40,343 nt of DNA. Origin: a virus. Lineage: Duplodnaviria > Caudoviricetes. Positions 2,139 to 38,399 of the stretch are shown here, piece after piece. How positions within the stretch are numbered: position 1 is the first letter of the stretch; every line of letters starts with the position of its first letter. Both the position numbers and the translations under genes were made by a program. Where the stretch lies: IMG/VR virus record IMGVR_UViG_3300022181_000124, positions 1-40,343 of that record, one strand, 5' to 3'. Below the pieces are notes generated by a model. That model saw only the letters and a list, made by a program, of their open reading frames with translations. It was not told where the DNA came from and ran no database searches.

Positions 2139-3758
2139 TTAATATTGAAAAGTTTCTTGTTCATGGCCAATGACCCTGGCCTTTTTATGTGAAGGCAGTG
2201 TCGCAGGAATTCTTGGTTTTTTCCCCGCCAAAAGCTCTCCGATAGTCAAAATCTGGATCCTAGGAAAATCTTGATTCCAAGTCGCTGACCTGTATGATCC
2301 TTTTCCAATGGCTTCTGTCGTCATGTTTCGTGTTGGGTTATCCAGTGTGAGGAAGATGCCAATTTCAGCTTTCTCTCGATCTATAACATGGCCAAGATCA
2401 CGTATATCTTTGACGGATATAGAACCACTTTTTACCTGTACAATTGCCTTCTTGTATTCATTCTTCTCATCGCTGAAGTAAATAAAACCATCTATGCCAG
2501 TATCGGCTCCTTTTTTCCGATCTCCATAAGGCCTTGCATCGATTAGAGATAACGCCCACCACTGAAATTGGTACCTATTTTGAGTCGCAAGCTGTCGCGA
2601 TCCATTAAGATCCTGTGGTTCCCCAACTACTTTATAATCACGCCCGGGTTCAATTCCAAACGCATATTTTAGACGACCTTTAATGAGATTAATAGAGAGG
2701 TGTGTTACATCAATTCCAACCCATTTGCGTCTGAGCTTTTGTGCAGCTGATACTGCCGTACCACAGCCACAGAATGGATCAAGAACAATATCCCCATCAT
2801 TTGAACTTGCTTCAATAATTCTTTCAAGCAAAGCCTCTGGTTTCTGCGTCGGATATCCTAAACGTTCGTCTGCTCCTCCAGGTATATAGGAGATGTCGTC
2901 CCAAAAATCCTGCAGCGGTACTCCTGGCATTTCGTCAAGAAATACAATTCGACACCGCTTTGTTGGTTTTCCATTTCTCCCCAACTTAATACGACCGTGA
3001 CTTCCAGGAACTTCTGTTTGAGGCATATTCCATAAAGCCAGCATTTTATCGGGACCCGTTCTCCATCGAGCTGATGTTCCCATAAAGTCATAAAGTTCCA
3101 TTCGATTTTGTGGATCTAACATATTTTCTGCTTTATAATATCTGCCACTTGGAAGCTTTACCCATTCACTAGATATATATTTTTCAGTATATGGAGTATA
3201 TAATCTATTAAAAGTGTTTTTCTTCGTTTTCGTATAAAAAAATATAATATCTGATATTCGTCCGAATCGACTTGAGGGATCATTATGAGCGCTTGAGCGT
3301 TTCCATGTTATTTCATTACGAAAATATTGTTTCCCCATAATTGCATCCAATAGAATTTTTAAATAATGACTTGCAGTTGGGTCACAATGCAGATAAAGAG
3401 AACCAGTATCTTTTAGAACTCTGCGAAGTTCTATGAGGCGGATGCACATCATGGTCAGGTAGGCCATCATATCGTTCATTCCAATAAAGCCCTTCAGGGC
3501 TTTCATCATTTCAACAACATTAACAGGAGCCGTTTCAATAATCTCCTGAAAAACCCTTTGGGCCTCCTCTGTCCAGTGCCAAGTGTCTTCGAATGCGGTG
3601 ATCTGAGCAGATGATTTTTCGCCTGTGGGTTCTCGATAGAGGATATTGTAATCGGCCTTTGAATTAAAGGGCGGATCGAGATATATCAAGTCAACTGATT
3701 CATCAGGAATATACTTCTTAAGAATATCTAGATTATCACCATAATATAGTGTATTCAT
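2139..3758 (-). CDS. Beta-class N6/N4 DNA methyltransferase fused to a C-terminal Mrr-like endonuclease domain
   Basis: YLDPPF (motif IV) precedes LDPFCGCGT (motif I); YPTQKPEALL; C-terminal GADTGIDG…IVQVKSG is an Mrr-type D…QxK motif. Confidence 0.88.
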   Translation of the reverse strand: MNTLYYGDNLDILKKYIPDESVDLIYLDPPFNSKADYNILYREPTGEKSSAQITAFEDTWHWTEEAQRVFQEIIETAPVNVVEMMKALKGFIGMNDMMAYLTMMCIRLIELRRVLKDTGSLYLHCDPTASHYLKILLDAIMGKQYFRNEITWKRSSAHNDPSSRFGRISDIIFFYTKTKKNTFNRLYTPYTEKYISSEWVKLPSGRYYKAENMLDPQNRMELYDFMGTSARWRTGPDKMLALWNMPQTEVPGSHGRIKLGRNGKPTKRCRIVFLDEMPGVPLQDFWDDISYIPGGADERLGYPTQKPEALLERIIEASSNDGDIVLDPFCGCGTAVSAAQKLRRKWVGIDVTHLSINLIKGRLKYAFGIEPGRDYKVVGEPQDLNGSRQLATQNRYQFQWWALSLIDARPYGDRKKGADTGIDGFIYFSDEKNEYKKAIVQVKSGSISVKDIRDLGHVIDREKAEIGIFLTLDNPTRNMTTEAIGKGSYRSATWNQDFPRIQILTIGELLAGKKPRIPATLPSHKKARVIGHEQETFQY

Positions 3759-11966: not shown

Positions 11967-13040
11967 TTATACACTCGAACTCCTTGTAATGAATCTTCTT
12001 TGAAGCATTCTGATAGTCGGTTTCTCGATTTTATAATGAACAAATATAGCAATAATACATGACATGATGAGCGCAACAAACATTCCAATTATTGTGTCTG
12101 TCTTCAGGATAGGTATCATCTTAATTGAGAGAGGTTGTTGTATTCCTATCCATACGGTATGAGTAAGGTATAAGGCGTAAGAGGCATCGCCTAAAATTAT
12201 TGATGGCTTCCAAGCGTATCGTAAGCCAGATGAGTGTAAAAGTAATGCCATCAAAATGACACTGAATGGAATTATGTACGACGAATAATAACGATGACAC
12301 CCGAATGTATTTATAGCCAAATATGCACACAGTACAACAAAACCAATAGGAAAAAGGACAAGTTTTTTTCTTAGAAAATGAATTCTACCAAGTATCAACC
12401 AAGCGTAATACGAGAAAACACCAAGAATGAAGAAAGTTGTATAACCGTGGCTATAAAAATCAAGAACCTTGCTACTATGAGTTAATGAAAAATCAAGAAC
12501 CTTTATTCCAATGAGTACGAAGCATGCTAGTATTGTTGCCCTCTTTGTTTTAAAAAGCAACATAACTCCTATGATTAAATAAAAAAGCATTTCAAGATTC
12601 AGAGTCCATCCGACTTCTAAATAAGGATGTAAATTCCCTGCCTCATTCTGGTAAGGAATGAAGAAAAAGCTCTTTAATAAAACTAAAAAGTGTGATGAGA
12701 ATGCCCCTGCGTTGCCTACCAAAAGATTGATGAAACCCGCTTCATTCAGTGAATCACGATTGTGTAAAAAATGCCCCATGGTTGGAAACAGAAGGCTAAA
12801 GCAGAGAAACGCAACTGCAGTTATAATCCAATACAAAGGAACGATTCTTATTATTCGACGTATAAGGAATTTATTATCTGCATCTTGGGTAATATATGTC
12901 ATTATAAATCCGCTAATAACAAAGAAAATACTTACACCTTGAAAATCTGTATGAACATTTTTATAAAGCAAAAATCCTGTGTGGTAGTAAACAACGGCCA
13001 AAGCGGCCACCCCACGCAAGACTTGAATATTATGAATCAT
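11967..13040 (-). CDS. Acyltransferase-3 (OafA-like) membrane O-acyltransferase moron
   Basis: IQVLRGVAALAVVYYH, GVSIFFVISGFIM, RIVPLYW, GWTLNLEMLFY, LGDASYALYLTH, IEKP motifs; multi-TM; AT-rich, antisense. Confidence 0.92.
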   Translation of the reverse strand: MIHNIQVLRGVAALAVVYYHTGFLLYKNVHTDFQGVSIFFVISGFIMTYITQDADNKFLIRRIIRIVPLYWIITAVAFLCFSLLFPTMGHFLHNRDSLNEAGFINLLVGNAGAFSSHFLVLLKSFFFIPYQNEAGNLHPYLEVGWTLNLEMLFYLIIGVMLLFKTKRATILACFVLIGIKVLDFSLTHSSKVLDFYSHGYTTFFILGVFSYYAWLILGRIHFLRKKLVLFPIGFVVLCAYLAINTFGCHRYYSSYIIPFSVILMALLLHSSGLRYAWKPSIILGDASYALYLTHTVWIGIQQPLSIKMIPILKTDTIIGMFVALIMSCIIAIFVHYKIEKPTIRMLQRRFITRSSSV

Positions 13041-17405: not shown

Positions 17406-18986
17406 ATGGCCGAAGAGACGAAACGCCCGCCCGTTGTCACCGACGAAGTCGCCACCATCGAGAAGGACATCGACATCTTCGCCGGCTGGCTGAAGCGCCT
17501 GGAGAATCCGGACCCGGTCCTCCGTACCGAGGCAGCCGGAAAGGGCCTCAAGCTCTACGACGAGGTGGACCGGGACGCCCATGCGGGAAGCGTGCTGCAG
17601 CAGCGGATCCTCGCCGTTGTGGGGAAGGAATGGGACGTCATCCCGGCCAAATCCGCCCGGAAACAGGGCCGGCCGGCCGCCACGTCCCAGGAGCAGGTTG
17701 TCGCCGATTTTGTTTCGCAGGTCCTGGAGGACTGCAACTTCGACCAGGCCCGCCAGGAGATCCTGAAGGCGGTCCTCTACGGTTTCTACAGCTTCGAAAC
17801 CCTCTGGGAGCCGAAGGATGCGTCGATCGTCATCCGGAAGATCCTGGGCAAGCATCCCCGGCGGTTCGTTTTCACACCCGAGCGGGAGCCGCGCCTCCTT
17901 ACGACCGACAACATGGTGGACGGAGAGTCCCTTCCGGAGCGGAAGTTCGTGTTCCTCACCTGGGGCGACTCCGACAACCCCTACGGCCGGGGCCTTGGCC
18001 AAAAGCTCTGGTGGCCCGTCTGGTTTAAGAAGCACGGCGTCAAGTTCTGGCTCGTCTTCCTGGAGAAGTTCGGCATGCCCACGGTGAAGGGCAAGTACCC
18101 GGCGGGGACGGGTCCCGAGCAGAAGAAGGCGCTCCTGGATGCCATCGAGGCGATCCAGAACGATACAGGACTCACCATGCCCGACACGATGGACGTGGAG
18201 TTCCTGGAGGCCTCCCGGGCTGGCACGGTGACCCATGAGCAGCTCTGCAACTACATGGACCGCCAGATCTCGAAGGCCGTCCTGGGACAGACCGCCTCGA
18301 CGGAGGGGACCCCCGGGAAACTCGGCAACGAGGAGTCCCAGGAGAACGTCCGCCAGGAGCTGATCGAGGCCGACGCGGATCTCCTGGACGCCTGCCTGAA
18401 TGAGACCCTGGTCCGCTGGATCGTGGACTTCAACTTCCCCGGAACGGCAGCTTACCCGAAGCTCAAGACCTATGCGGCGGCGAAGCCAAACCTGAAGCAG
18501 CAGTCCGAGATCGACAAGACCCTGGTCGTGGACATCGGCCTCCCCGTGGGAACGGCCTACTTTTACGAGACCTACGGGATCCCGGCGCCCGTAGAGGGTG
18601 AGGAGTTGGTGAACGCGCCGCCGAAGGCGCCGGCGGTGCCCAAGGGCGGGGAGTTCGCGGAAGATCCGGATACAAAGGACGCCGCCGATCATATCGCCGA
18701 CCGGACGGCCCGTCAGGCCCTGAAGACGACCGATGCCGTCTACATGGTGCCTCTCAAGCGCCTGGTGGACGAGGCGGACTCCCTGGACGATCTCCGCGAC
18801 CGGATCCTCGATTTGTGGGGCGAGATGCCCTCCGACGAGTTGGGCGTCATCGTGTCCCGGGGGCTGATGTTGGCGGAGGTGAGCGGGCAATACGAGGTCG
18901 GGGCGGAGACGGGGACCCTCGGGGATAAAAAAAAAGCCCTGAATTCGCCGAAGACGCCATCGCGCCGGGACTTCTGGCAGCCCTGA
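17406..18986 (+). CDS. Portal protein (gp29/DUF935)
   Basis: NPYGRGL, FLEKFGMP, ISKAVLGQT motifs; follows terminase. Confidence 0.94.
   Translation: MAEETKRPPVVTDEVATIEKDIDIFAGWLKRLENPDPVLRTEAAGKGLKLYDEVDRDAHAGSVLQQRILAVVGKEWDVIPAKSARKQGRPAATSQEQVVADFVSQVLEDCNFDQARQEILKAVLYGFYSFETLWEPKDASIVIRKILGKHPRRFVFTPEREPRLLTTDNMVDGESLPERKFVFLTWGDSDNPYGRGLGQKLWWPVWFKKHGVKFWLVFLEKFGMPTVKGKYPAGTGPEQKKALLDAIEAIQNDTGLTMPDTMDVEFLEASRAGTVTHEQLCNYMDRQISKAVLGQTASTEGTPGKLGNEESQENVRQELIEADADLLDACLNETLVRWIVDFNFPGTAAYPKLKTYAAAKPNLKQQSEIDKTLVVDIGLPVGTAYFYETYGIPAPVEGEELVNAPPKAPAVPKGGEFAEDPDTKDAADHIADRTARQALKTTDAVYMVPLKRLVDEADSLDDLRDRILDLWGEMPSDELGVIVSRGLMLAEVSGQYEVGAETGTLGDKKKALNSPKTPSRRDFWQP
18927..18936 (+). other. 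Slippery A9G run, candidate -1 frameshift site (portal to MuF)
   Basis: GAT AAA AAA AAA GCC in portal frame; MuF frame is exactly -1. Confidence 0.7.
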
Positions 18987-21226
18987 ACCTGCCCTTCCGG
19001 GAGCAGGAAACGTTCTTTCAAAACAAGCTGAACATCCCGACCCGGAAGTGGACGGACCTCTGGAAGGACCAACACGCGAAGGGGTTCATGATCGCCGGGG
19101 CCTACAAGGCGGATCTCCTGGCGGACTTCCGGGGTGCCGTGGAGAAGGCCATCACCCAGGGCAAGACCCTGGAGATGTTCCGGAAGGATTTCGACGGGAT
19201 CGTCGCCAAGCACGGCTGGTCCTACAACGGGTCCCGGAACTGGCGGAGCGAGGTGATCTACTCCACGAACATCCGGACGTCCTATGCGGCGGGGCGCTGG
19301 GAGCAGCTCCAGGATCCGGACGTGAAGAAGTTCTACGGCTACCTGGAATACCGCCACGGCGACAGCCGGGTGCCGCGGCCCCAGCACCTGGCCTGGAACG
19401 GCATCATCCTCCCGGCGGACGATCCCTGGTGGGACAGTCATTACGTTCCCAACGGCTGGGGCTGCAAATGCCGGGTCCTGGCGGCGACGAAACAGGATCA
19501 CGCCCGGGCGTTAAAGGATGGGCTGGGAAAGGCTCCCCCCTCCCCCATCGATCCGAAGACCGGCGAGCCCGTCGGGATTGACAAGGGCTGGGGCTACAAC
19601 GTCGGGAAGGCCGCCCAGGCGAAATACAAGGTCCTCGAAAGCGCCTTGGAACGGCTACCGGAGGACATCGCCCAGGCGCTCCTCGGCGAGATCGAGGCCA
19701 GGGACAAGGAGGCGGCCAAGGTCGCCCGGCGCGTCCGGAGAACCGTGCAAAAGAAGGCGGCGCCGGCGGCCGGAGCGGCCGACGACATCCGCCTCTGGAA
19801 GAAGGTCGGGGAGCAGAAGGGATCGAATCCCGGCGGGCTGTACGAGGCCCCGGACAAGCAGCGCTACTACGTCAAGTTTTACACGGACGAAAACCAGGCC
19901 CGGACGGAATTTGCAGCCAATGCCGTCTACAAGATGCTTGGCGTTGAGATGCCCGAGCTGGCCCTTCGGGACTGGGACGGGAAGCTGGCCCTGGTGAGCC
20001 GGTGGAGGACGGATCTGAAGGCCATGAAGGCCGCCGACATGATCGTCCATCCCGACGATATGGCGAGGATCTTCCACGCCTCTGTCCTCACGAAAAATTG
20101 GGACGTGGTCGGGCTGGAATTTGACAACGTCCTGGTCGGGAAAAACGGGCGCCTCGTCATGATCGACGCCGGCGGGAGCTTCAAATATCGCGCCCGGGGT
20201 GGCGCGAAGGCATACGAAGCCGCTGTTGATGAAGTGAAGACCCTGCGGGATGCGAGGATGAATCCGCAGTCGGCCTCGGTTTTCAATGCCGTCTTCGGGA
20301 AAAACGTCTGGCTGGAGCGGGAGGGAGCGGAAGGACTCCTCAACCTGAACAAGGCGGAAGTGAAGAAGGTGTTCGAGCGGGCCGGCTTCGCCAAGGCGGA
20401 AGCCAAGGACCTGACGGACACCCTCTGGAAGCGACGCCAGGCGCTGATCGATCGCTATGACCTGGAGAACAGGCTGGTTCCCCCGGGATTTGGAAAGCAT
20501 CTGGAGGAGTTCAAGAAGTGGGGTGTGACGGCTCTATCGGAACAGGAAGCAACCGACTCGATCCCTCTCATCGTACGGGAACGATTCGAACAGTACATCG
20601 AACGCATGTTCGGCAAAGAGGGCGTTTCCGCCCTGCAGCGATGGTTCAACGAATGGAGCGGATCCTCGCAGAGCGTGGCGGCGGGCCTGGTCAAGCAATG
20701 GACTGAGGAGCGACTCGGGCTGAACGTAACGTACCATTCCGGCAGCAAGGGAATGACCGCACGAAACCTGGCACGAACGCATGCCGAGCGGGTTTCCAAG
20801 GCCTCGAAACTCCCGCGGGAGACCCTGTTCAACCTCCTCGATGCGGAGTTTGAGTTCCATCAGTACTACCTGCGGAGATTGCACGGCTACGAGGAGTTCT
20901 CGGTCGTCCGGGAGATGAGCAAGAAGGAGATGTCCCGCACATTCCGGAACGGGAAGTACCAGTACGGAACGGCGACGTGCACGGCTTACCCGGCCGGGAC
21001 GTACAGGAACACGGAGGCATTGGAGATCACGGCAAGGGTCGAGGACTTCATCAAAACCTGGAGGCAGGGTCCCCGGTACATGAGGTTCTATCACGCCGGC
21101 GAATACACGGGGAAAGAGGCTCTGCCGGATGCCGGCAAGGCGAACGGCATGGCCGAACACGAGTACATCTTCCTCGGCCGGCCGAGAGAAGCCCGCATCA
21201 TCAAGAAAAACGGCTCTTATTTCTGA
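18929..21226 (+). CDS. MuF (gp30) head protein with kinase-like and ADP-ribosyltransferase-like extensions; entered by -1 shift from portal
   Basis: Frame is open from 18929 (after TAA 18926-18928) and encodes LPFREQETFF…PTRKWTDLW…HAKGF before the first ATG (19088); MuF PNGWGCKCRV; GSNPGGLY…YVKF…NWDVVG…DN…IDAG kinase-like motifs; terminal EHEYIFLG. Confidence 0.85.
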   Translation, partial: KKSPEFAEDAIAPGLLAALNLPFREQETFFQNKLNIPTRKWTDLWKDQHAKGFMIAGAYKADLLADFRGAVEKAITQGKTLEMFRKDFDGIVAKHGWSYNGSRNWRSEVIYSTNIRTSYAAGRWEQLQDPDVKKFYGYLEYRHGDSRVPRPQHLAWNGIILPADDPWWDSHYVPNGWGCKCRVLAATKQDHARALKDGLGKAPPSPIDPKTGEPVGIDKGWGYNVGKAAQAKYKVLESALERLPEDIAQALLGEIEARDKEAAKVARRVRRTVQKKAAPAAGAADDIRLWKKVGEQKGSNPGGLYEAPDKQRYYVKFYTDENQARTEFAANAVYKMLGVEMPELALRDWDGKLALVSRWRTDLKAMKAADMIVHPDDMARIFHASVLTKNWDVVGLEFDNVLVGKNGRLVMIDAGGSFKYRARGGAKAYEAAVDEVKTLRDARMNPQSASVFNAVFGKNVWLEREGAEGLLNLNKAEVKKVFERAGFAKAEAKDLTDTLWKRRQALIDRYDLENRLVPPGFGKHLEEFKKWGVTALSEQEATDSIPLIVRERFEQYIERMFGKEGVSALQRWFNEWSGSSQSVAAGLVKQWTEERLGLNVTYHSGSKGMTARNLARTHAERVSKASKLPRETLFNLLDAEFEFHQYYLRRLHGYEEFSVVREMSKKEMSRTFRNGKYQYGTATCTAYPAGTYRNTEALEITARVEDFIKTWRQGPRYMRFYHAGEYTGKEALPDAGKANGMAEHEYIFLGRPREARIIKKNGSYF

Positions 21227-21459
21227 GGCCAGGCGAGCATGACGAGATCAACCAGGCGGGGATATTGGATGGCAACGTCGCCCACAGGATTTCCAAGGGA
21301 CAGGTCCAGCGCAAACACCGGACCGTACTCCAGGAACGATTCGAACGTGCTGCAGCGCCCTGCATACGACCGTTCGCCGATCGGCTCCTCGATCGGTCCC
21401 AGAGCCTCATATCTTCGCTTCAGCTCCTCCATTGGAAGGGTCGGTTCACGTTTGATCAT
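21217..21459 (-). CDS. Small antisense protein, candidate immunity to the MuF effector
   Basis: ~80-aa ORF, AAGGTG upstream of ATG, convergent with and overlapping the MuF 3' end; function inferred from position. Confidence 0.55.
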   Translation of the reverse strand: MIKREPTLPMEELKRRYEALGPIEEPIGERSYAGRCSTFESFLEYGPVFALDLSLGNPVGDVAIQYPRLVDLVMLAWPQK

Positions 21460-21531
21460 GTCCACACCTTTTCGAAGATCGATTCATGGAAAGAAAACCC
21501 CTGTTGGTGAAAACCCACATGGCGGCCGTTC

Positions 21532-21693
21532 TTACACCTCTCGTTTTCTGTCGGCGGTCTCCCGTCTGTTGTCCAGGCGGATCAACATGCGGATGTATGC
21601 CGCAACGCTGATGCCCAGCATTTCGGCTTTCTCAAAGGCCATGCGCCGCGTTTCCGGATCGACCCGGAGCGGGAGAGACTCCGTTTTCTTCAT
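21532..21693 (-). CDS. Ribbon-helix-helix (CopG/Arc-like) regulator
   Basis: MKKTESLPLRVDPETRR…AEMLGISVAAYIRMLI RHH pattern. Confidence 0.78.
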   Translation of the reverse strand: MKKTESLPLRVDPETRRMAFEKAEMLGISVAAYIRMLIRLDNRRETADRKREV

Positions 21694-21699
21694 GGCATA

Positions 21700-21727
21700 A
21701 CGATATACATTGTATTGCATTTGTCAA
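21700..21727 (-). promoter_or_regulatory. Antisense promoter with operator palindrome for the RHH cassette
   Basis: TTGACA-16 bp-TATCGT, 6 nt before the ATG (leaderless-type); ATACA-T-TGTAT inverted repeat at 21705-21715 in the spacer. Confidence 0.6.
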
Positions 21728-22277: not shown

Positions 22278-23504
22278 ATGACGGAATTCAAGGGCTTTAA
22301 CGGCTGGATCGAGATCTTCAAGGGGGGCCGGCAGACCGACAGCCAGGGCGTCGAACACGACGGGAACGCCCTGATCGACAAGGCCGTCGCCACCTTCAAC
22401 GCCTCCCGGCACGAGCCGCCGGCGGTGATCGGCCATCCTGCCCATGACGCCCCGGCCTACGGCTGGGTCGAGGGGCTGCGGAAGGACGTCCGGAACGGGA
22501 CGGCGTTCCTGTCCGCCAAGTTCAAGCAGGTGGTCCCGGAGTTCGAGGAGATGGTCAAGAGCGGCCGGTTCAAGAAACGGAGCGCCGCCTTTTATCCCGA
22601 CGGATCCCTGCGCCATGTGGGGTTCCTGGGCGCAACACCGCCGGCGGTAAAAGGCTTGGCCGAAGTGGCCTTTGGTGAAGGCGATGCAACCGTCTTCGAG
22701 TTCGCCGAGGACGGCTATTTCCGGGGCGCCCTCGGGGACGTCTTCCGGCGGCTTCGGGAGTGGATGATCGAAAAATTCGACCAGGACACGGCGGACCGGG
22801 TGGTCCCCAACTGGACGATCGAGGATATCCGGGCCGCGCCGGCGGATCCGGTCAACAACATCGCAACCTATTCCGAAACCAGGAAGGAGGAACGAAGCAT
22901 GCAGTTTAAGGAATTCATTCAGAGGCTGAAAGAATTGGTCTCCAGCGTGGACACCCAGGCCGCGGATCCGCCCGCCGGGAAGACCTTCTCGGAGACGGAC
23001 ATCGAGGCGGCCCGAAAGCAGGCAGCCGACGAGGCGGCCCGCCAGGAGCGGGAAAAGCTGACCGCCGAATTCGCCGAAAAGGAGCGCACGGCGCGCCAGA
23101 ATGCCCGTAAAGCGGAGATCGCCGGCTGGTGCGAGTCCATGATCAAGGCGGGGAAGATGACGCCCGCGTGGGTCAAGTACGGCGTGCCGGACATGATGCT
23201 CGCCTTCGCCGGCATGGAGGGCGAGATCGAGTTCGGCGAGGGGGACGGCAAGGTCAAGGCCACCCTCTATGATCGATTCAAGGCCTTCTTCGAGACGGAG
23301 ATGCCGAAGGTGATCGAGTTCAAGGAGATCGCCACCCGGGACAAGGATCCGGGCGGCCAGGGGGATGCGGGAGCAAGGCTCAGCGCCCTCGTCGCCAAGA
23401 AACAGGAGGCCGACAAGACCCTGACGTACAGCGCGGCATTCGCCGAGGTCCAGCGGGAGAACCCCGACCTGGCCCGGGAATACCTCCAGGAGATCGGCGG
23501 CTGA
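22278..23504 (+). CDS. Prohead protease/scaffold (Mu gpI-like)
   Basis: IGHP…PAYGWV…KKRSAAF…LRHVGFLGATPPAVKGL. Confidence 0.9.
   Translation: MTEFKGFNGWIEIFKGGRQTDSQGVEHDGNALIDKAVATFNASRHEPPAVIGHPAHDAPAYGWVEGLRKDVRNGTAFLSAKFKQVVPEFEEMVKSGRFKKRSAAFYPDGSLRHVGFLGATPPAVKGLAEVAFGEGDATVFEFAEDGYFRGALGDVFRRLREWMIEKFDQDTADRVVPNWTIEDIRAAPADPVNNIATYSETRKEERSMQFKEFIQRLKELVSSVDTQAADPPAGKTFSETDIEAARKQAADEAARQEREKLTAEFAEKERTARQNARKAEIAGWCESMIKAGKMTPAWVKYGVPDMMLAFAGMEGEIEFGEGDGKVKATLYDRFKAFFETEMPKVIEFKEIATRDKDPGGQGDAGARLSALVAKKQEADKTLTYSAAFAEVQRENPDLAREYLQEIGG
22899..23504 (+). CDS. Nested in-frame scaffold protein (Mu gpZ-like)
   Basis: Strong internal SD AAGGAGG before an in-frame ATG at 22899; helical, charged sequence. 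Confidence 0.7.
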   Translation: MQFKEFIQRLKELVSSVDTQAADPPAGKTFSETDIEAARKQAADEAARQEREKLTAEFAEKERTARQNARKAEIAGWCESMIKAGKMTPAWVKYGVPDMMLAFAGMEGEIEFGEGDGKVKATLYDRFKAFFETEMPKVIEFKEIATRDKDPGGQGDAGARLSALVAKKQEADKTLTYSAAFAEVQRENPDLAREYLQEIGG

Positions 23505-26614: not shown

Positions 26615-28050
26615 TGGCATCGGAAAACGTCTCTTTCGACCAGATCCCTGCGAGCATCCGCAAACCGGGGAAGTATTTCGAATTCAACACGAAGCTGGCC
26701 GTCCGGACCCTGACGACGAACGAGCAGAAGATGCTCGTCATCGCCCAGAAACTGTCGGCGGGATCCGTGGCGGTCCATACGCCCACGCAGGTCTTCTCCG
26801 ACACGGAGGCCGCGGCCTACTTCGGGGAGGGCTCCATCGCCCACCGGATGGCCCGGGCGGCCATCAAGGCGAATCCCTACATCGACCTGACGGTTTGCGC
26901 CGTGGCGGACGCCTCGGGAAGCCCCGTGGCCGCCGTGGAGACCCTCACCCTGACAAACGAGGCCACATCGTCCGGGATGATCACGATCTACGTCGGCAAC
27001 GACAAGATCCAGGTGGGCATTGCCTCCGGGGACACGGCCGTCGCGATCGCCACGGCCCTGGCGGCGGAACTGGCGAACCATCCGGACCTGCCGTTCACGG
27101 CGGCCCAGGGCACGGAGTCCAACACCCACAAGATCATCTTCACCGCGAAGAATGCCGGCACCGTGGCCAACCAGGTGGACTTCTCCGCCGAGGTCACCGC
27201 GGCCGGCACCACGGCATCCTTCGCCCAGACCACCCCGGGATCCGTGGATCCCGATCTCGCGTCGGCCCTGGCGGCCGTTGCCGGGGAGCAGTACCACCTG
27301 ATTGCAACGCCGTTCATCGACGCCGACTCCCTGGACGATCTGATCGACCACCTGGACAACGTGAGCGGCCCGCTGGAGCAGCGGCCCGGGGTGGGCGTCT
27401 ACGGTTACGACGGTTCCCTGGCAAGCTGCACGACCCTCGCCTCGGGCGTAAATTCCGGCCGCGTGGTCTGCGCCTACCTGCGGGGAACCCGGAGCCCGGC
27501 CTACGAGATCGCCGCGGCGATGGCCGCCGTCATGGCCTACGAGGAGGATCCCGCCCGGCCGCTCAACACCCTGGAGCTGAAGGGGATCGCGGCGGCGCCG
27601 ATCGGCCAGCGCTTCTCCCGGACGGAACAGGAAAACCTGCTGCACAACGGGGTCACGCCCCTGGAGATCGGCCCCGGCGAGAAGGTCCAGATTGTCCGGG
27701 CCGTCACGACCTACACGGTGGACGCCCAGGGCATCAGCGACGTCTCGCTCCTGGACGCGACCACCATCCGGACCCTGGACTACGTCCGGAAGGCCCTGCG
27801 GGAACGGATCGCCCTCCGGTTCCCCAGGGAGAAGCTCTCCTCGAAGACCCCTCCCCAGGTGCGGGACCAGATCCTGGATGTTCTGGAGAAGCTGGAGGAC
27901 CTGGAGATCGTCGAGGAGGTCGCGGCGAATGCCGACGGCGTCGTCGTCGAGCGCGACCTGCAGGACGTGAACCGGCTGAACGCGAAGATCCCCGTGGACG
28001 TGGTGAACGGGCTCCATGTCTTTGCCGGCCGGATCGACCTGCTGCTGTAA
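26614..28050 (+). CDS. Tail sheath protein (Mu gpL-like)
   Basis: FDQIPASIRKPGKYFEFN, DPARPLNTLEL, DVVNGLHVFA. Confidence 0.94.
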   Translation: MASENVSFDQIPASIRKPGKYFEFNTKLAVRTLTTNEQKMLVIAQKLSAGSVAVHTPTQVFSDTEAAAYFGEGSIAHRMARAAIKANPYIDLTVCAVADASGSPVAAVETLTLTNEATSSGMITIYVGNDKIQVGIASGDTAVAIATALAAELANHPDLPFTAAQGTESNTHKIIFTAKNAGTVANQVDFSAEVTAAGTTASFAQTTPGSVDPDLASALAAVAGEQYHLIATPFIDADSLDDLIDHLDNVSGPLEQRPGVGVYGYDGSLASCTTLASGVNSGRVVCAYLRGTRSPAYEIAAAMAAVMAYEEDPARPLNTLELKGIAAAPIGQRFSRTEQENLLHNGVTPLEIGPGEKVQIVRAVTTYTVDAQGISDVSLLDATTIRTLDYVRKALRERIALRFPREKLSSKTPPQVRDQILDVLEKLEDLEIVEEVAANADGVVVERDLQDVNRLNAKIPVDVVNGLHVFAGRIDLLL

Positions 28051-28438: not shown

Positions 28439-28762
28439 ATGCTGACCGAGAAAGGAACACTGCCCGTCGGCGTCGAGTTTGAAGGGACGGTCCACCGGGA
28501 GTTCGAGATTCGCGAACAGCTCGTCCGGGACACCGTGGAGATTTACGACGATCCGGAGCTGGTCGCCCGGGCGGAAAAGAACGACGCCTACATGGGGCTG
28601 TGCATCGTCGCCAAGCAGCTCACGATCGGCACCATTCCCAGGGAAGCCGTCACGGCGGACATGCTCATGGAGATGCACCAGGCAGACATGGCCGTCATCA
28701 ACAAGGCGGAGAAGGTACTGGCGGCCCGCAGGGCCACCTTTCGCGGAGGCGAGGCGCAATAG
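28439..28762 (+). CDS. Tail assembly chaperone (short form)
   Basis: GTLPVGVEFEG…HREFEIR; between tube and tape measure. Confidence 0.8.
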   Translation: MLTEKGTLPVGVEFEGTVHREFEIREQLVRDTVEIYDDPELVARAEKNDAYMGLCIVAKQLTIGTIPREAVTADMLMEMHQADMAVINKAEKVLAARRATFRGGEAQ

Positions 28763-28919
28763 GCGGCGCCTGATCGTTTCCCTTCTGTCGATGGGACTCG
28801 ACTACCGGACCATTCTGGAGATGCCCGACGAGGAGGCCCGGATGCTGGTTGAGACATTCAACGATCTGAACGATCCGGAAGCCACGACCACCCGGAAGTA
28901 CAAGGTCCGGAGGAAGTAA
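28740..28919 (+). CDS. Tail assembly chaperone extension, reached by +1 shift at ACC TTT CGC
   Basis: +1 frame FAEARRNRRRLIVSLLSMGLDYRTILEMPDEEARML… fills the gap to the tape measure gene. Confidence 0.65.
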   Translation, partial: FAEARRNRRRLIVSLLSMGLDYRTILEMPDEEARMLVETFNDLNDPEATTTRKYKVRRK

Positions 28920-28923
28920 CGTT

Positions 28924-37619: not shown

Positions 37620-38399
37620 ATGAAGAGCATGCTGGCTTATGTAGGCGGCAAATCGTTACTTGCGAAGCACATTATTGAACGGATCCCCGAGCACCGCTGC
37701 TATTGTGAAGTATTCGCCGGTGCAGCCTGGGTCCTATTCAAGAAGGAAGAGTCCCCGGTGGAGATCATCAATGACATCAACACCGACCTGGTGACCCTTT
37801 ATCGGGTGGTCAAGCATCACTTGGACGAGTTCATTCGCTATCTGCGGTGGCTTCTCGTATCGAGAGAGGAATTCGAACGCTTCAAGGAGGAAAGCCCGGA
37901 TACTCTGACGGACATCCAACGGGCCGTCAGGTTCTACTATCTACTCCGAAACGGTTATGCGGGCCATATAGTGGCGCCCAGCTTCAGTATGAAGGCAACC
38001 GGCCGCCCCAGCTTCAACCTTCTGCGGATTGAAGAAGACCTGTCGGCGGCCCATCTTCGCCTGGCCAGGGTTTATATAGAGAATCTGCCTTATGAGAAAT
38101 TGATAAGCAGGGTTGATAAGCCTTTTACTTTCTTTTATCTGGATCCGCCATACTACGGTTTTGAGGACTATTACGGCCCCGGGATCTTTAAAAGGGAAGA
38201 CTTCACTAAGCTGGCAGATGTTCTACGGGGAGTTAAGGGAAAGTTCATGCTCTCAATAAATGACGTTCCCGAGATCCGGCAGATATTTAGAGGATTTGTC
38301 CTGGAGGAAGTTTCGACTTCCTACACAATAGCCGGTGGAAACCATCAAAAGAGGGCAGCAGAACTACTGATTCGCAACTACGAGATCAACGGTCGCTGA
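37620..38399 (+). CDS. D12-class N6-adenine DNA methyltransferase (Dam-like), in the mom position
   Basis: YVGGKS, EVFAGAA, INDIN, FFYLDPPY, ELLIRNY. Confidence 0.93.
   Translation: MKSMLAYVGGKSLLAKHIIERIPEHRCYCEVFAGAAWVLFKKEESPVEIINDINTDLVTLYRVVKHHLDEFIRYLRWLLVSREEFERFKEESPDTLTDIQRAVRFYYLLRNGYAGHIVAPSFSMKATGRPSFNLLRIEEDLSAAHLRLARVYIENLPYEKLISRVDKPFTFFYLDPPYYGFEDYYGPGIFKREDFTKLADVLRGVKGKFMLSINDVPEIRQIFRGFVLEEVSTSYTIAGGNHQKRAAELLIRNYEINGR

Follow-up and report, generated by a model that had tools for sequence, protein, structure and literature searches.

A conserved nine-adenine run at a Mu-like portal-MuF gene junction and its probable role in fusing the two head proteins

The window considered here is the whole 40,343-nucleotide stretch of IMG/VR virus record IMGVR_UViG_3300022181_000124 (Caudoviricetes), a Mu-like prophage in which the portal gene is followed by a MuF-type head gene that lacks a start codon of its own. 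Programmed recoding very probably joins the two genes into one product, given the coding constraint on the linker in front of MuF, the missing start codons and an invariant run of nine adenines (A9) near the portal 3' end. Because the two frames overlap one base out of step on this conserved run and MuF has no start, slippage of RNA polymerase is the likely mechanism. With one extra A inserted by the polymerase in a fraction of the transcripts, the plain portal of 526 amino acids (aa) would be made alongside a predicted 1273-aa protein composed of portal, MuF, kinase and ADP-ribosyltransferase (ART). Fused subunits would take their place among plain ones in the portal ring and thereby bring MuF into the prohead, where the phage protease would cut at F-[A/S]-E motifs ahead of the portal tail and just past the slip; the freed MuF-cargo would then be delivered with the DNA. 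This reading as a whole (slip fusion, entry of MuF through the portal ring, protease release) is given a probability of about 0.6.

The MuF frame opens directly after a TAA, in register -1 relative to the portal. Its first ATG, GTG or TTG is the ATG at 19088, 53 codons in, which lies inside the conserved MuF N-terminus and downstream of the LPF motif that begins at 18989. The run is exactly 9 A long and is followed by 16 portal codons and TGA; the predicted fusion after the shift comprises 510+763 = 1273 aa. The initial annotation had described this arrangement, and the start-less frame, its register, its distance from the portal stop and the size of the product were all confirmed. No other A-run longer than 7 occurs in the window, three related-host genomes have 14-22 copies of A9G per 2.8-4.0 Mb, and the lysine codons of the portal upstream of the run are 4 AAA vs 30 AAG. 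Reads with 10 or 7 A would have marked the run as a homopolymer error; at contig level the length of 9 held, with 0 other letters and 0 gaps across 18300-19700 in the two Logan contigs X1 and X2 (depth 179 and 143), which are possibly the source of the window DNA and which, as contigs, drop rare variants. The junction is identical in metagenome contig L150 (727,785 bases), which may share the window's source.

Related junctions were collected by a MuF-seeded scan (80 viral-contig loci), a portal-seeded scan (80 loci, overlapping with the former) and a genome scan (39 loci). Pattern scans were biased to A9 and FAE by design, and proportions were therefore drawn from the protein-seeded scans only; of the metagenome matches in the second pattern scan, 12/27 lacked MuF and were discarded, and 18/18 viral matches were portal-MuF junctions. 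The MuF-seeded loci comprised 17 with A9 in the -1 state before the portal stop, 4 in-frame fusions retaining A9, 51 loci where MuF stands as a separate gene behind a start codon and 8 that could not be scored. Among the portal-seeded loci 15 carried the slip (14 A9, 1 A10), 4 were fused in frame to this MuF (3 with A9), 9 were constitutive fusions to another short MuF-like domain, 48 were separate and 4 were cut. The genome scan yielded the slip in 2/39 loci, on contigs titled uncultured Smithella sp. and HGW-Deltaproteobacteria-12, with 12/39 unscorable. An identity search returned no GenBank phage at 60% identity or more to the portal or MuF.

Pooling gave 27 distinct junctions, 24 of them out of frame by -1 (the window included) and 3 in frame; of the 23 other -1 junctions, 21 came from the protein-seeded scans and two were added by the pattern scans. 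The alignment of related junctions that had been proposed earlier thus found the A-run kept in the -1 register in 24 distinct sequences, whose MuF genes share 70-96% (median 77%) of their DNA, and on this conservation a programmed -1-equivalent recoding of portal into MuF is strongly supported. The run measures 9 A in 26 of the 27 junctions and 10 A in one (23 A9 and one A10 among the -1 junctions). The spacing from run to LPF takes six different values, with the register kept in all. Upstream of LPF, 15/24 of the -1 junctions have no ATG, GTG or TTG. The nine A positions are invariant in 22/22 phase-0 junctions, in which the 30 bases upstream are variable; aligned lysine codon pairs elsewhere in MuF are identical in 1119/1762 (64%), so that the run appears to be kept at the DNA level beyond coding need.

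The linker itself carries the mark of a translated sequence. In 16 linkers of equal length, third-position entropy is 1.11 in the -1 frame vs 0.49 and 0.38, single-base codon differences are synonymous in 65% (527/812) of cases in the -1 frame vs 15% and 14% in the others (the pairs share ancestry), and stops interrupt 0/16 linkers in the -1 frame vs 16/16 in the other frames. Judged by these substitution patterns, the start-less linker evolves as protein, and in the -1 frame only.

For the mechanism, polymerase slippage as the main route is favoured at slightly better than even odds. The documented threshold for bacterial polymerase slippage is nine A/T (PMC5009743), and the run always has 9-10 A; the length of 9 is retained in two codon phases and in the three in-frame fusions. 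A programmed ribosomal -1 frameshift on A_AAA_AAA, with an upstream Shine-Dalgarno (SD)-like helper and an unchanged mRNA, is the closest competitor, though an unlikely one as the principal route. It leaves unexplained that junctions with 7-8 A are absent, and that A_AAA_AAG, a more efficient heptamer, never occurs in register even though lysine is encoded more often by AAG (821) than by AAA (511). A conserved stimulatory hairpin past the run was not found in a search restricted to hairpins (mean z -0.39; below -2 in 2/26 at 60 nt and 3/26 at 90 nt), and glutamate codon use near the run is ordinary.

Several observations weigh against slippage or against the fusion as such. All 24/24 out-of-frame junctions are -1 (the three in-frame fusions could use either direction), and by a rule given in section 10 of PMC3711429 a single shift direction among orthologues predicts ribosomal shifting. 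The X_XXY_YYZ heptamer A_AAA_AAA stands in register in both codon phases, shifting on it has been proven for an insertion sequence cluster (PMC4066793), and a Lys-Lys-Lys requirement together with the heptamer would also give 9 A. SD-like words occur upstream in 17/24 junctions vs 117/408 background windows, but this signal is equalled by separate-gene controls (20/24 vs 30/42). Most close portals do without the slip (in the portal-seeded set 48/80 separate genes and 10/80 fused without the run), and the case for recoding is built on DNA sequence. Both routes may act, and the peptide would be the same either way.

The remaining explanations fit the junctions far less well. Separate translation of MuF, with initiation at ATG 19088 or at a near-cognate codon of the linker and an incidental run, draws on the canonical start 3-10 codons ahead of LPF in 9/24 of the -1 junctions, which also counts against the fusion, on the own start codon of 51/80 MuF-seeded relatives, on a CTG at -17 in many junctions and on the in-frame ATC and CTG of the window linker. 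No start position is common to the junctions, however, and loci L011 and L087 contain none of seven codon types; the CTG at -17 was rejected on the same ground. Initiation at ATG 19088 would leave out the conserved LPF region, protein-level constraint on the linker reaches up to the run and the run is invariant; a separate start is very improbable. Just as improbable is phase variation at the DNA level, with phage genomes alternating between A9 (off) and A10 (fused): poly-A tracts are known sites of phase variation (PMC3711429) and rare variants are hidden in contigs, but none of the junctions was in the A10-fused state expected after a switch, up to six assembly records of one junction are in agreement, the -1 register persists at the sole A10 locus and the run measures 9 A in all three fusions that have one. 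That the run is a homopolymer assembly error or marks a decaying pseudogene is scarcely credible; homopolymers are error-prone, but neither of the two deep contigs has an indel, and the same state is found in 23 further distinct junctions whose MuF genes are 70-96% identical in nucleotides.

The low ratio of fused subunits assumed in the initial annotation is not supported: 40% shifting was obtained with a 9-A cassette (PMC3711429) and about 50% with Thermus thermophilus dnaX (PMC5009743), and fusions that are fully in frame occur in close relatives. At the 40% of the published cassette, several of the twelve portal subunits could be fused.

In the in-frame portal-MuF fusions that keep A9 (L022, L029/L031, L032), the -1 frame stops within 1-4 codons, so that a -1 event would give the plain portal. 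These loci possibly represent the inverted polarity, with fusion by default and the slip yielding the portal. In a sister group (L033, L041, L043/L044/L048/L105, L051, L053/L054) there is a new stop/ATG overlap and the A-run lies inside the MuF start; L105 is located on a contig titled Smithella sp. SCADC. The A-run of this own-ATG group (L033, L041, L043, L051, L053, L054) ranges from intact to broken and FAE is lost, and the broken runs may reflect decay after loss of need. Constitutive fusions to the different short MuF-like domain are L174, L198, L200, L202, L206, L211, L216, L217 and L218 (660-716 aa as matched). Locus L215, with A7 in the +1 register, was not counted; it resembles a CTG-started MuF.

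In a MuF tree from a quick search the junction states are intermixed, with 12 changes. In the portal tree one clade (support 99) holds 20 slip, 3 in-frame and 3 separate rows; the purity of this clade was dismissed as a sampling effect, as a later portal scan gave many separate-gene portals at 53-75% identity. Near-identical MuF genes were also seen paired with portals just 30-35% identical to the window portal, which points to recombination at the portal-MuF boundary.

The motif F-[A/S]-E is likely to be the site of the maturation protease, to judge from its distribution. In the MuF-seeded set it is present in the linker of 17/17 slip loci, 1/4 in-frame loci (the other three have F-A-S) and 0/51 separate-gene loci, and it recurs 78-110 residues before the end of 19/20 slip-locus portals. 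The 408-aa protease/scaffold of the window has 4 copies vs 4 in the 6,317 aa of 17 other proteins, and at least two are found in 30/39 related protease open reading frames (ORFs). The Mu portal is present in virions without its last 124 residues, a loss ascribed to protease I (PMC11915804), and the SPN3US protease cleaves after A-X-E (PMC10052503). Two cuts would probably free the portal tail and the MuF-cargo inside the prohead. Some findings speak against such release: of the 39 protease ORFs, 9 (several of them truncated) contain one motif or none; in Mu the repeated word is AALSA, which occurs once some 80 residues ahead of the portal end and three times in the 315 protease residues examined; and the case for cleavage at F-[A/S]-E is one of motif statistics. 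The initial annotation placed the cargo at the DNA exit, whereas the putative sites after the slip and before the portal tail suggest that it would be released in the prohead. A short stretch of the portal tail (18770-18793) is nearly identical to one in a later tail-region gene (about 27318-27341).

The window protein has the layout of a MuF polymorphic toxin, with an N-terminal MuF domain (PF04233) just downstream of the portal and a variable C-terminal enzymatic part. The first predicted enzyme was modelled with a confidence (pLDDT) of 77.5; its best VIA match is CtkA (Z 16.9, root-mean-square deviation 3.0, 203 aligned), followed by CotH, PI4K and HipA, and K316, E327, D392, N400 and D413 are invariant in the alignment. 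Kinase matches filled the fold searches of the cargo, and no PDB entry matched the cargo sequence with E below 0.55. The predicted ART domain reaches an Atlas TM score of 0.66 to a DraT cluster, under the Atlas naming bar. It keeps R661 and E743-x-E745 and has an insert of about 19 aa, and its activity is uncertain because the central motif diverges from that of its relatives. Once delivered, kinase and ART would modify host proteins on entry, by analogy with T4 Alt and the T7 kinase, to which PMC5512222 refers.

The cargo behind the slip varies: none (241-242 aa; L012, L014, L028), a PBECR2 nuclease-like domain (L036), other proteins of 263-404 aa, and kinase-ART of 731-745 aa. Slip and cargo are considered independent because the slip also precedes cargo-less MuFs and the same kinase-ART cargo is carried by separately started MuFs (L001, L007). 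The earlier description of the slip as a toxin loading route is hence too narrow; by this distribution the slip is predicted to load MuF whatever its cargo. On the opposite strand, a cassette at 21217-21727 (-) co-occurs with the kinase-ART cargo and consists of a promoter-like site, a ribbon-helix-helix (RHH)-like gene, a gene stub (from 21520) and the 82-aa ORF, which likewise co-occurs with the cargo and matches no Pfam family. In L001, L007, L010 and L018 the stub's counterpart is an intact gene of 103 aa. The cassette possibly provides immunity expressed in the lysogen, with one gene lost here.

The features of the locus are summarized in Table 1. In addition to transposase, gp27, terminase, portal, MuF, G and protease, the prophage carries tail genes, and mutS lies at the right edge of the window; profile matches gave the Mu-like head module order Mu transposase, gp27 terminase, Portal_Mu, MuF, G and protease. 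An Acyltransferase_3 gene inside the prophage (11967-13040, -) may serve in lysogenic conversion by modifying the surface. Near the ends of the element lie two genes resembling adenine DNA methyltransferases (2139-3758, -; 37620-38399, +).

Table 1. Features of the portal-MuF region, in window positions
Feature	Position	Strand	Evidence or remark
Mu-like portal gene, 526 aa	17406..18986	+	Pfam Portal_Mu PF06074, 343.5 bits, aa 49-392; phrog_113; residues 1-510 common to the fusion
F-A-E motif, portal aa 417-419, ahead of the portal C-terminal appendage	18654..18662	+	Putative prohead-protease site
TAA closing the -1 frame upstream of the A-run	18926..18928	+	
A9 slip run, three Lys codons in the portal frame	18927..18935	+	Holds in-register A_AAA_AAA at 18929-18935
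F-A-E motif in the -1 frame linker, three codons past the run	18944..18952	+	Putative MuF release site
Start-less MuF-cargo frame, -1 to portal	18929..21226	+	765 codons, stop to stop
MuF core domain PF04233	19127..19477	+	50.5 bits vs cut-off 29.6; phrog_220
Predicted atypical kinase domain, CtkA/CotH/PI4K/HipA-like fold	19781..20482	+	Structure model, fold match, alignment
Predicted ADP-ribosyltransferase domain, DraT-like	20516..21223	+	Pfam DRAT, 31.5 bits vs cut-off 25
82-aa ORF, immunity candidate, convergent with the cargo	21217..21465	-	Homologues behind kinase-ART MuFs
Small RHH-like regulator heading the reverse cassette	21532..21693	-	NikA-like, 24.6 bits, under cut-off 27
Promoter-like site upstream of the RHH-like gene	21727-21700	-	
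Head maturation protease/scaffold	22278..23504	+	Four F-[A/S]-E motifs; phrog_976

Recoding at a portal-MuF gene pair was not found described. A search of full-text, mostly non-subscription literature returned constitutive portal-MuF fusions and no recoded one. Word look-up gave none in PMC5576092, PMC5512222, PMC5009743 (first part) and PMC3711429 (main text with two supplements), and nothing on the subject was present in the portions of PMC4066793, PMC11445458 and PMC3447690 covered. The components are known individually, namely nine-A slippage, tail frameshifts, constitutive fusions and MuF toxins. A close mechanistic likeness is T. thermophilus dnaX (PMC5009743, PMC3711429), where a nine-A/T run in a coding region gives two products with a common N-terminus in one complex; that shift truncates a polymerase subunit, whereas here the portal would be extended into a separate head gene, as read from DNA.

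Frameshifts of tail assembly chaperones are on record (PMC2628397, PMC7911831), and in the G/GT case (PMC2628397, PMC5009743) recoding likewise sets the ratio of a short to a fused protein in a virion assembly operon. G and GT are, however, tail genes before the tape measure, shifted by the ribosome and coding for non-virion chaperones, whereas the present pair is a portal and a packaged protein. The slip site is at the portal 3' end, not between tail tube and tape measure, and the window has a separate gene resembling a tail assembly chaperone at 28439-28762. A +1 frame lacking a start overlaps and follows this weak match (E 0.06) ahead of the tape measure (28439-28920); the site is a candidate for a second recoding event of the Mu -2 type.

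One portal-MuF polypeptide is also made by the constitutive fusions of Microbacterium clusters EA3/EA5/EA8/EB (PMC7302621), PBECR or 2H domains have been reported fused to MuF or portal (PMC5512222), and 13/80 portal-seeded relatives have portal and MuF in one ORF; in contrast to such single ORFs, the fusion described here needs a slip and the plain portal is also encoded. The MuF polymorphic toxins of PMC5576092 share a MuF downstream of the portal, a variable C-terminal enzyme and a small neighbouring ORF, but they are described as separately started (the word 'frameshift' gives 0 hits in the paper), whereas the present cargo is kinase plus DraT-like with a reverse-strand immunity candidate. 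Phage Mu gp29/gp30 (PMC11915804; NC_000929) has the same order of terminase, portal, MuF, G and protease; unlike here, gp30 carries a gene annotation of its own, in overlap with gp29, and AALSA is the word repeated in portal tail and protease.

For the entry of MuF proteins and their effectors into the head in defined copy number, the main known case is SPP1 gp7, of which one to two portal-bound copies are present (PMC5576092). A conserved slip would add a covalent, dose-setting route for MuF loading and would extend the few known phage recoding sites by a head gene pair. These MuFs are cut short by gene callers, which overlook the fusion, and the database form of the window protein begins at residue 54. 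F-[A/S]-E offers a candidate cleavage rule for the Mu-like prohead protease. We tentatively suggest that polymerase slippage at the portal end acts as a tunable valve that sets the number of MuF-effector molecules per head, with paired protease sites freeing the cargo. The settings found across one portal family would then be separate genes, a minority fusion (A9 in -1), a majority fusion with slip to stop (A9 in frame) and full fusion. If true, such a valve would constitute a recoding-plus-maturation route for the loading of injected effectors.

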